From Dictyostelium discoideum (lineage: Eukaryota), in assembly GCA_000004695.1 (NCBI GenBank), contig CM000151.3, positions 960,001 through 1,024,000 of the forward strand: a DNA stretch of 64,000 nt, read 5' to 3'. Made by a program: the position numbers and the translations under genes. Below, in pieces: positions 38,593 to 39,321 of the stretch (position 1 is the first letter of the stretch; every line of letters begins with the position of its first letter). Under the pieces are notes generated by a model. The model made no database searches. It worked only from the letters and a program-made list of their open reading frames with translations, and had not been told where the DNA came from.

Positions 38593-39096
38593 AAAAGACC
38601 CTGTAAAAAAAAAAAAAAAATAAAATGAGATCTAGCATCTCAAGGAGAAGCAAATAATAATTGCGTTATCCAATTCAAAAAAAAAAAACCACTCAATTTT
38701 GGGTTAAGCAAAAATCTCCTCGGACATGTACAACCAGGCCAATAAGTATCGCAACTAAAAAAACTCCGAAATGAGGGATTATAATATATCATCGATCTGG
38801 GGAGTAGTTTTCAAAACTTTCCGACGGCACAAACGGCCGACAGGACACCCGGCACGGCACAAGCGAAGCCGTTGGTTAGTCAGACACTGCAACAGTAAAC
38901 ATGTGGCACACTGGCGAGACACTTCAAGTAACGGGAAGGAGGCTGGTGCCTCTGGGCCGACGCACTCGCACAAAGTTAGTCGATAAAAGTAAAAATATAT
39001 ATAAAGACGAATGGCGAGTGAGTGGCGCGAGAGATGAGAGCGAGTTTCGGTCACGAAAGTGGCTTAAGGTTTCACCGATGAATGGAGGTTGGGTAG

Positions 39097-39321
39097 TTGT
39101 CGCACCATCAACTTCAAGACCCGCCATACTGTCGCTGCATAGACTACATACAGGAGAAAAGTGGAGGTTCCAAGATTGCGTGGGGAATTGAAATTCTCAA
39201 CAAATTGGATATTTCATTAACAGCCAATGCAATAGCCATTATAAGCGAAAACATCTGGTGCAGAAGAAACAAAAAAGTTCATGAAGGAATCACCCTCAAA
39301 AATCCAAGAAAGGTTATTTAG
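39097..39321 (+). CDS. Fragment resembling the C-terminal (RNase H-like/Cys-motif) end of a non-LTR ORF2
   Basis: ...AWGIEILNKLDISLTANAIAIISENIWCRRNKKVHEG... has the W.RN..VF/HEG-type ending seen in L1-like ORF2 C-termini. It is followed by an AT-rich 3' UTR and poly(A) at 39541. Confidence 0.4.
   Translation: MSHHQLQDPPYCRCIDYIQEKSGGSKIAWGIEILNKLDISLTANAIAIISENIWCRRNKKVHEGITLKNPRKVI

Follow-up and report, generated by a model that had tools for sequence, protein, structure and literature searches.

Capture by template switching is the accepted route by which short interspersed elements (SINEs) and new 5' ends of long interspersed elements (LINEs) arise. Here we describe what is probably a capture of this kind by TRE5 retrotransposons, recognized in Dictyostelium discoideum as an island of high guanine plus cytosine (GC) content within a stack of TRE5 elements upstream of a tRNA-Gly(GCC) gene. 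The island occupies positions 38701-39135 of a 64,000-nucleotide stretch of contig CM000151.3 (assembly GCA_000004695.1, positions 960,001 to 1,024,000 of the forward strand), referred to below as the window. The type of event is known, but for dictyostelid TRE elements the searchable literature gave us no account of it.

The WEIRD-MGL (MINE) elements of Magnaporthe grisea carry a constant 5' part from a non-coding RNA, fused in the same orientation to a 5'-truncated LINE of variable length and accompanied by short direct repeats, an arrangement that has been explained by a template switch during LINE reverse transcription (PMC2104539). The composites described here resemble them in these respects. 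They differ in that the Magnaporthe donor RNA is highly expressed and 33 bipartite copies are recorded (PMC2104539), whereas here there are three copies and a donor RNA that we infer, and in that the partner is the tRNA-gene-targeting amoebozoan TRE5, represented by three lineages. In the U6-L1 chimeras of mammals, the 3' end of a small RNA is likewise joined at variable positions to a 5'-truncated LINE, with target-site duplications (PMC4476161, PMC11838501). However, U6 is a known polymerase III RNA of 107 nt, whereas the unit reported here is ~570 nt long, gives no match in Rfam and lacks a U-tract where it meets its partner. tRNA-derived SINEs provide a further parallel, as they combine a box A/B-like head, an unrelated body and a 3' part from a partner LINE (PMC4494074). 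The present unit differs from them in having no fixed tail, as each of the three copies is followed by a different TRE5 segment (~0.5 to >5 kb); the copy in the window is also headless, and the head seen in other copies is not recognized as a tRNA by ARAGORN or Rfam.

Two comparisons lie within the TRE5 family itself. TRE5-A.2 is also a short TRE5-derived unit that keeps the C-module, with the protein of open reading frame (ORF) 2 supplied in trans (PMC3159450), but it is built from TRE5-A modules only, whereas the 5' half of the composite is unrelated to any TRE5 module. Like the A-module of TRE5-A, the GC-rich unit stands at the 5' end of the element, and in a copy outside the window (locus L001) it takes the place of the A-module and of the initial part of the B-module. 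The two differ in that they share no sequence similarity and in composition, the GC-rich unit having 48-52% GC and the A-module ~20%.

A composite element with a GC-rich 5' half

The island forms the 5' half of a composite element of 966 bp (38701-39666), all parts of which lie on the + strand. Homology to the GC-rich unit stops at 39135 and homology to TRE5 ORF2 begins at 39136, with both parts in the same orientation. The TRE5 part consists of a degenerate ORF2 fragment from a non-A TRE5 lineage (39136-39543; the last ~410 nt, starting at the CIDYIQEKSGG codons), a run of 28 A (39544-39571) between the end of ORF2 and the C-module, and the C-module itself (39572-39666), which is the 3' end of the composite and has no 3' B-module upstream. 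The fragment shows 60-75% amino acid identity to the Dictyostelium proteins P0001 and P0002, in agreement with the initial annotation, which had placed an AT-rich C-terminal fragment of ORF2 next to the island. The 12-mer CCACTCAATTTT borders the composite on both sides (38689-38700 and 39667-39678, + strand), the latter being its 3' target-site duplication. This 12-mer occurs exactly three times in the window (36285, 38689 and 39667), always at an element boundary. Since it flanks the whole composite, the GC-rich segment and the TRE5 part entered the locus as one unit.

Alignments of the TRE5 part to the loci L002 (from 8262, 83%), L004 (from 6817, 77%) and L005 (from 6678, 76%) all begin exactly at 39136. 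Its C-module is 90-94% identical to the C-modules of these three loci and, in a global alignment, 75% identical to the TRE5-A C-module of the neighboring element 1. The arrangement of the A-run is the same in L002 and L004. TRE5-C has been described as lacking the 3' B-module and as sharing ~78% identity with TRE5-A in its C-module (PMC3159450), and the layout of the partner lineage, here called lineage 2, fits this description, so that we refer to it as TRE5-C-like. L004 and L005 are full-length copies of lineage 2, each ~50 bp upstream of a tRNA gene; their A/B-like 5' modules are 79% identical to those of TRE5-A, their ORF1 is unrelated to TRE5-A ORF1, and a C-module is present. Across the loci L003-L009, from D. 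discoideum, D. cf. discoideum and D. citrinum, we observed three TRE5 ORF2 lineages, one of A type, one with an unrelated ORF1 (MLGENLISEW...) and one whose ORF1 shares 35-39% identity with TRE5-A ORF1. Each lineage terminates in a C-module, 81-94% identical to the one of element 1 over 66-92 nt in local alignments, which fits poorly with the published statement that TRE5-B has none.

The island begins with GGGTTAAGC and ends with ...CCATACTGTCGC, and its bounds were set by homology. Its GC content is 48.7%, rising to 52.3% in the core at 38815-39135, in a window with a mean of 24.3%. The highest values in the window at 350, 200 and 100 bp all fall here (52.0% at 38821-39170, 54.5% at 38790-38989 and 60% at 38821-38920), the best windows elsewhere reaching 43-51% (island z ~3.5). 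The island is thus set apart in composition within the 64 kb, as had been noted, and the sequence quoted for it was found at 38822-38891. The GC content of about 55% given at that time holds for a core of ~200 bp (54.5%) but not for the full interval 38700-39200 (47.7%). The window contains a single copy of the GC-rich unit.

Three overlapping ORFs lie on the + strand in three frames (38771-38986, 71 aa; 38901-39191, 96 aa; 39097-39321, 74 aa) and two on the - strand of the island (38779-39054, 91 aa; 38924-39127, 67 aa), in line with their earlier description. We also concur that the island carries no recognizable protein motif, as a six-frame Pfam search at E<=10 was empty. The ORF reading MRDYN...HKVSR (71-73 aa) is open in the window (38771-38986) and in L001 (6001-6222) and is interrupted by a stop in the third copy, L007; in the window, deletions of 1 nt and 2 nt shift and then restore its frame. 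It probably arose by chance in a stop-poor, GC-rich sequence, and no homologue was found.

Copies of the GC-rich unit in related genomes

A protein search led to P0003, a gene model of D. cf. discoideum, and from there to locus L001, which carries the GC-rich sequence. A third copy, in L007 of a D. discoideum assembly, came to light through the retrieval of a lineage 3 ORF2. The island is 88.0% identical to L001 5928-6366 and 88.8% identical to L007 4014-4451, and the units of L001 (5798-6366) and L007 (3889-4451) are 92% identical to each other over 574 aligned columns. Because the similarity between the latter two begins at a common 5' end, GGCCC(C/T)GATAGTGCAGTGG, despite unrelated upstream flanks, we take the full unit to be 563-569 nt long, with 48% GC. 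The island is therefore a 5'-truncated copy (positions ~130-569 of a ~569-nt unit), which lacks the first ~130 nt, including a tRNA-like head. We dropped the notion that the window and L001 share a 5' end, since the window copy is truncated there and the true 5' end is given by L001 versus L007. The 3' end of the unit falls on the same nucleotide in all three copies, ...CCATACT(G/A)TCGC.

The partner and the point of fusion differ in each case. In the window the partner is lineage 2 and the junction lies ~410 nt before the end of ORF2; in L001 it is TRE5-A, joined at nt 19 of ORF1; in L007 it is lineage 3, joined ~50 nt before the ORF2 start codon, inside the end of ORF1, as placed by comparison with L008. 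From nt 19 of ORF1 onward, L001 is 100% identical to L006, a canonical copy with A/B modules in the same genome. None of the three junctions contains target-derived filler or an A-run, and the overlap between the two parts is at most one base.

The unit is absent from the canonical full-length elements L003 and L006 (TRE5-A type), L004 and L005 (lineage 2) and L008 and L009 (lineage 3). L008, which is intact, and L009 have other 5' regions that are not GC-rich, and L009 contains no further copy of the unit. The L007 composite begins 49 bp upstream of a tRNA-Thr(AGT) gene on the opposite strand, and the L001 composite begins ~100 bp from the B-box-like sequence GGTTCGAATC; both are therefore placed as expected for insertion by the TRE5 machinery.

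In L001, the 3' B-module of the TRE5-A part is broken after ~22 nt by long terminal repeat (LTR) sequence (11182-11660). The interrupting sequence matches the LTR pair (1363-1824, 7414-7867) of a Ty3/gypsy-type element in L002 (RVT_1, RT_RNaseH, rve), and L005 2645-2928 belongs to the same matching set. A divergent C-module in L001 could thus be ruled out, the sequence in question being an LTR inserted into the 3' B-module.

The gene model P0003 (465 aa, L001 6001-7731) joins GC-unit ORFs in two frames to TRE5-A ORF1 via predicted introns. Read without interruption, L001 contains instead a 489-aa ORF (6262-7731) with its ATG inside the GC-rich unit, and P0003 looks like an annotation artefact arising from GC-rich, stop-poor sequence. 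It was the sole match in protein searches of the GC-rich part. A HMMER search with a 90-aa ORF of the - strand against 1.84 billion proteins returned three translated tandem-repeat artefacts; the E value of 3e-15 was dismissed because it sums 11 repeats of a ~27-bit match.

Origin of the composite elements

The initial annotation had offered several origins for the island, among them an ordinary part of the TRE5-A ORF2/3' region. We found no similarity to element 1, L003 or L006, and neither blastn nor nhmmer aligned any of the island to canonical TRE5-A. The TRE5-A A-module was likewise considered and rejected, as the region in question (36250-36700) is AT-rich and unrelated. The island is not the normal 5' untranslated region of TRE5-C either, given that L004 and L005 of lineage 2 have A/B-like 5' ends and that comparison with L006 identifies the TRE5 part of L001 as canonical TRE5-A in truncated form. 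A solo LTR of DGLT-A ('H3R', PMC5006619) did not fit in its ends or in its distance to the tRNA gene. Another proposal, that of a structured-RNA insert, could not be shown to hold: no credible Rfam match was obtained, the fold was no better than that of shuffled sequences, and covariation was not seen, although the full-length copies elsewhere do begin with a degenerate tRNA-like head. In Rfam 15, nothing reached the gathering threshold for the island, a search at E<=10 gave three matches at chance level (E 2.6-8.8), and L001 gave nothing at E<=1. The remaining proposal, a captured host or foreign sequence, is essentially supported as regards capture but not as regards foreign origin, for which no prokaryotic, phage or plasmid sign was found.

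In our view, a chimeric retrocopy in which the island makes up the 5' half is probable; it would have formed when a TRE5 reverse transcriptase switched templates from TRE5 RNA onto the 3' end of a GC-rich RNA. The signature of a chimeric retrotranscript is a constant 5' part with a fixed end, joined in the same orientation to a variably truncated LINE, the whole enclosed by one duplication. Here the donor 3' end is invariant in the three copies, the junctions show a 5'-truncated LINE of variable length, which in the window copy has its own 3' end (A-run plus C-module), and one duplication (CCACTCAATTTT at 38689 and 39667) surrounds the window copy. In the GC-rich unit we see neither an A-tail nor a C-module, and neither terminal inverted repeats nor ends of LTR type; without a tail of its own, it would travel only as a 5' passenger. 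The C-module hairpin is essential for TRE5 retrotransposition and the 5' region is replaceable (PMC3159450).

Under this reading, a TRE5 reverse transcriptase would start target-primed reverse transcription at the C-module end of a TRE5-C-like RNA, in the customary position ~48 bp upstream of tRNA-Gly(GCC). After ~530 nt, the enzyme would leave the TRE5 RNA for the 3' end of a second RNA, a GC-rich transcript of ~570 nt with a degenerate tRNA-like 5' head, of which 435 nt would be copied before second-strand joining. The product would be the single insertion 38701-39666 with its 12-bp target-site duplication, and a later TRE5-A.2 copy would have landed at the same spot, pushing the composite outward. 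The capture is likely to have been a fusion at the RNA or cDNA level rather than a classical transduction. Splicing is disfavored as the source of the junctions, since no AG acceptor precedes any of the junction points in canonical TRE5 copies.

The nature of the donor can be described more tentatively. The first ~75 nt of the full unit contain a box-A-like TAGTGCAGTGG and a box-B-like GGTTCGAT, and the three best tRNA alignments of this head (Lys, Glu and Val) have z scores of 3.4-5.4. That the unit has a tRNA-derived head is likely but not established. It is possible, if somewhat speculative, that the unit is the retro-copied footprint of an unannotated, abundant RNA of ~570 nt with a tRNA-derived, polymerase III-type head, which might be the product of a functional non-coding RNA gene or the first dictyostelid SINE-like retroposon, acquiring TRE5 tails. 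In that case its complete sequence would be available from the fused copies, whose 5' and 3' ends are defined. A small extrachromosomal or viral RNA without a genomic gene would be a less likely donor. What we infer from the composites is the template switch, and likewise that a donor RNA exists, is abundant and stems from polymerase III.

Several observations weigh against this interpretation. Outside the three composites, the unit was not found in ~170 kb of related loci, with no stand-alone donor gene or transcript seen, and the known copies are few, namely three, in three independent assemblies and two species. A flanking duplication is known for the window copy only, as LTR elements break into the other two composites, L001 and L007, at their 3' ends. 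Resemblance of the head to tRNA is weak, with 40-47 identical positions (~60%) in global alignments to nine Dictyostelium tRNAs and z scores of 0.4-5.4; ARAGORN made no call at 80% thresholds, and Rfam gave no tRNA match at E<=1. A conserved TTTT within the unit could stop polymerase III. Fold stability did not exceed that of shuffled sequences (z -0.99 and -0.20), and none of 109 predicted pairs was compensatory, a comparison of three sequences that has no power. Finally, the unit may already be recorded in the published TRE5-B/TRE5-C consensus.

The same architecture could be read in other ways. In one, which seems to us rather unlikely, the unit serves as the functional 5' (promoter) module for a SINE-like composite family derived from TRE5, possibly a non-autonomous one, and the fusion in the window arose once and was then amplified. 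The box-A-like and box-B-like motifs at the start of the full-length units, as in SINE heads, and the layout of the composite as a head/body followed by a LINE tail would agree with this, as would the ATG within the L001 unit that opens the 489-aa ORF1 in frame, the frame that is also open across the junction in the window, and the finding that another promoter can stand in for the TRE5-A A-module (PMC3159450). However, there are three TRE5 partners, three junction points and no common tail, the head is missing from the window copy, and the ~170 kb of related loci hold no second copy with the window junction; each composite would still originate by fusion at the 3' end of the unit. It is very improbable that read-through transcripts of a truncated TRE5 lying downstream of a genomic GC-rich promoter region were retrotransposed, as in 5' transduction. 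The GC-rich segment does stand on the 5' side of the TRE5 part, shares its orientation and falls within the target-site duplication, and position-specific integration of TRE5 could in principle reproduce one junction nucleotide, but three independent TRE5 insertions at an identical nucleotide beside the GC-rich sequence would be required. TRE5 lands ~48 bp upstream of polymerase III genes, whereas ARAGORN found no tRNA in the island and no B box occurs on either strand at <=1 mismatch.

Two neighboring insertions would also place the parts side by side, if a mobile GC-rich element and an older, 5'-truncated TRE5 had both been drawn upstream of tRNA genes. Stacking at one site is evident in the window, where elements 1, 2 and 3 follow one another, and constant ends are expected of a mobile element. 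Yet stacked elements have a target duplication between them and none of the three GC/TRE5 junctions does, the unit has none of the terminal features of a mobile element listed above, and the 12-mer brackets the composite rather than the GC-rich part alone, which makes this account very improbable. A composition far from that of the host genome and several ORFs of 67-96 aa on both strands might finally bring to mind DNA of foreign (bacterial, viral or plasmid) origin, an artefact of assembly or the decayed remains of a protein-coding sequence. The same sequence is present in three independent assemblies and two species, always in a TRE5 context; exact 24-mer scans of prokaryotic genomes (596 Gb) and of JGI metagenomes gave no match, and blastn of the island gave none in phage and plasmid collections. 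With no Pfam match, no protein homologue other than the artefact P0003, tandem repeats only from HMMER, and copies that differ by indels that are not multiples of three, we regard such an origin as extremely unlikely.

The tRNA-Gly(GCC) locus and implications

The tRNA-Gly(GCC) gene lies at 36180-36250 on the - strand (Rfam tRNA, 63.6 bits; also found by ARAGORN), with an internal B box at 36192-36201 and an external B box, GGTTCGATTC, at 36140-36149, ~30-40 bp downstream of the tRNA 3' end (36180). The first copy of CCACTCAATTTT (36285-36296, + strand) forms, with GG at 36297-36298, the 14-nt duplication of element 1. It ends at a distance of 46-48 bp from the tRNA gene's 5' end, matching the known TRE5 integration distance (PMC3159450).

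Element 1 (36299-38688, + strand) is the youngest of the stack and of TRE5-A.2 type; it forms the left border of the island and is not part of it. It comprises A and B modules, an intact ORF1 (36675-38009, 444 aa), an ORF2 that has lost a large internal part, a 3' B-module and a C-module, the same layout as TRE5-A.2 with its structure AB-ORF1-BC (PMC3159450). Its A/B modules are 87.6% identical to L003, and its B and C modules 91-93%. The A-module is duplicated (36299-~36390 and ~36497-36590), roughly 95 codons at the start of ORF2 and 15 at its end remain, and an A-run of 63 nt (38300-38362) lies upstream of the 3' B-module. The second copy of CCACTCAATTTT, at 38689-38700, serves both as the 3' duplication of element 1 and as the 5' duplication of the composite, which is element 2 of the stack. 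The third copy (39667-39678) is followed by element 3 (39679-39949, + strand), the oldest, in which a diverged stub of B-module/ORF1 is left, together with an A-run and a C-module; it has 74% identity to L001 6405-6559, and its C-module matches. After element 3, CAATCAGATTTT (39950-39961, + strand) is a diverged fourth copy of the same target sequence. The locus thus clearly documents three or more TRE5 insertions, one after another, at a single target whose sequence was duplicated anew by each of them. Downstream of the same tRNA gene lies a TRE3-type non-LTR element (30964-35996, - strand) with ORF1 (34788-35996, 402 aa) and an ORF2 fragment (30964-33546, 860 aa); together with the TRE5 stack upstream, it indicates that tRNA-Gly(GCC) was hit on both sides.

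The island should not be annotated as TRE5-A or as a gene, an error already visible in the public model P0003, which splices GC-unit ORFs onto TRE5-A ORF1. If our interpretation is correct, the composites point to an unannotated GC-rich RNA of ~570 nt, whose probable ends are given here, in a genome where 48-60% GC is exceptional. The finding would gain in interest if the donor were an unannotated abundant RNA or a nascent SINE. Our interpretation, if correct, would also mean that TRE5 reverse transcriptases switch templates in vivo and recurrently capture a cellular RNA, in at least two Dictyostelium species and in three TRE5 lineages.

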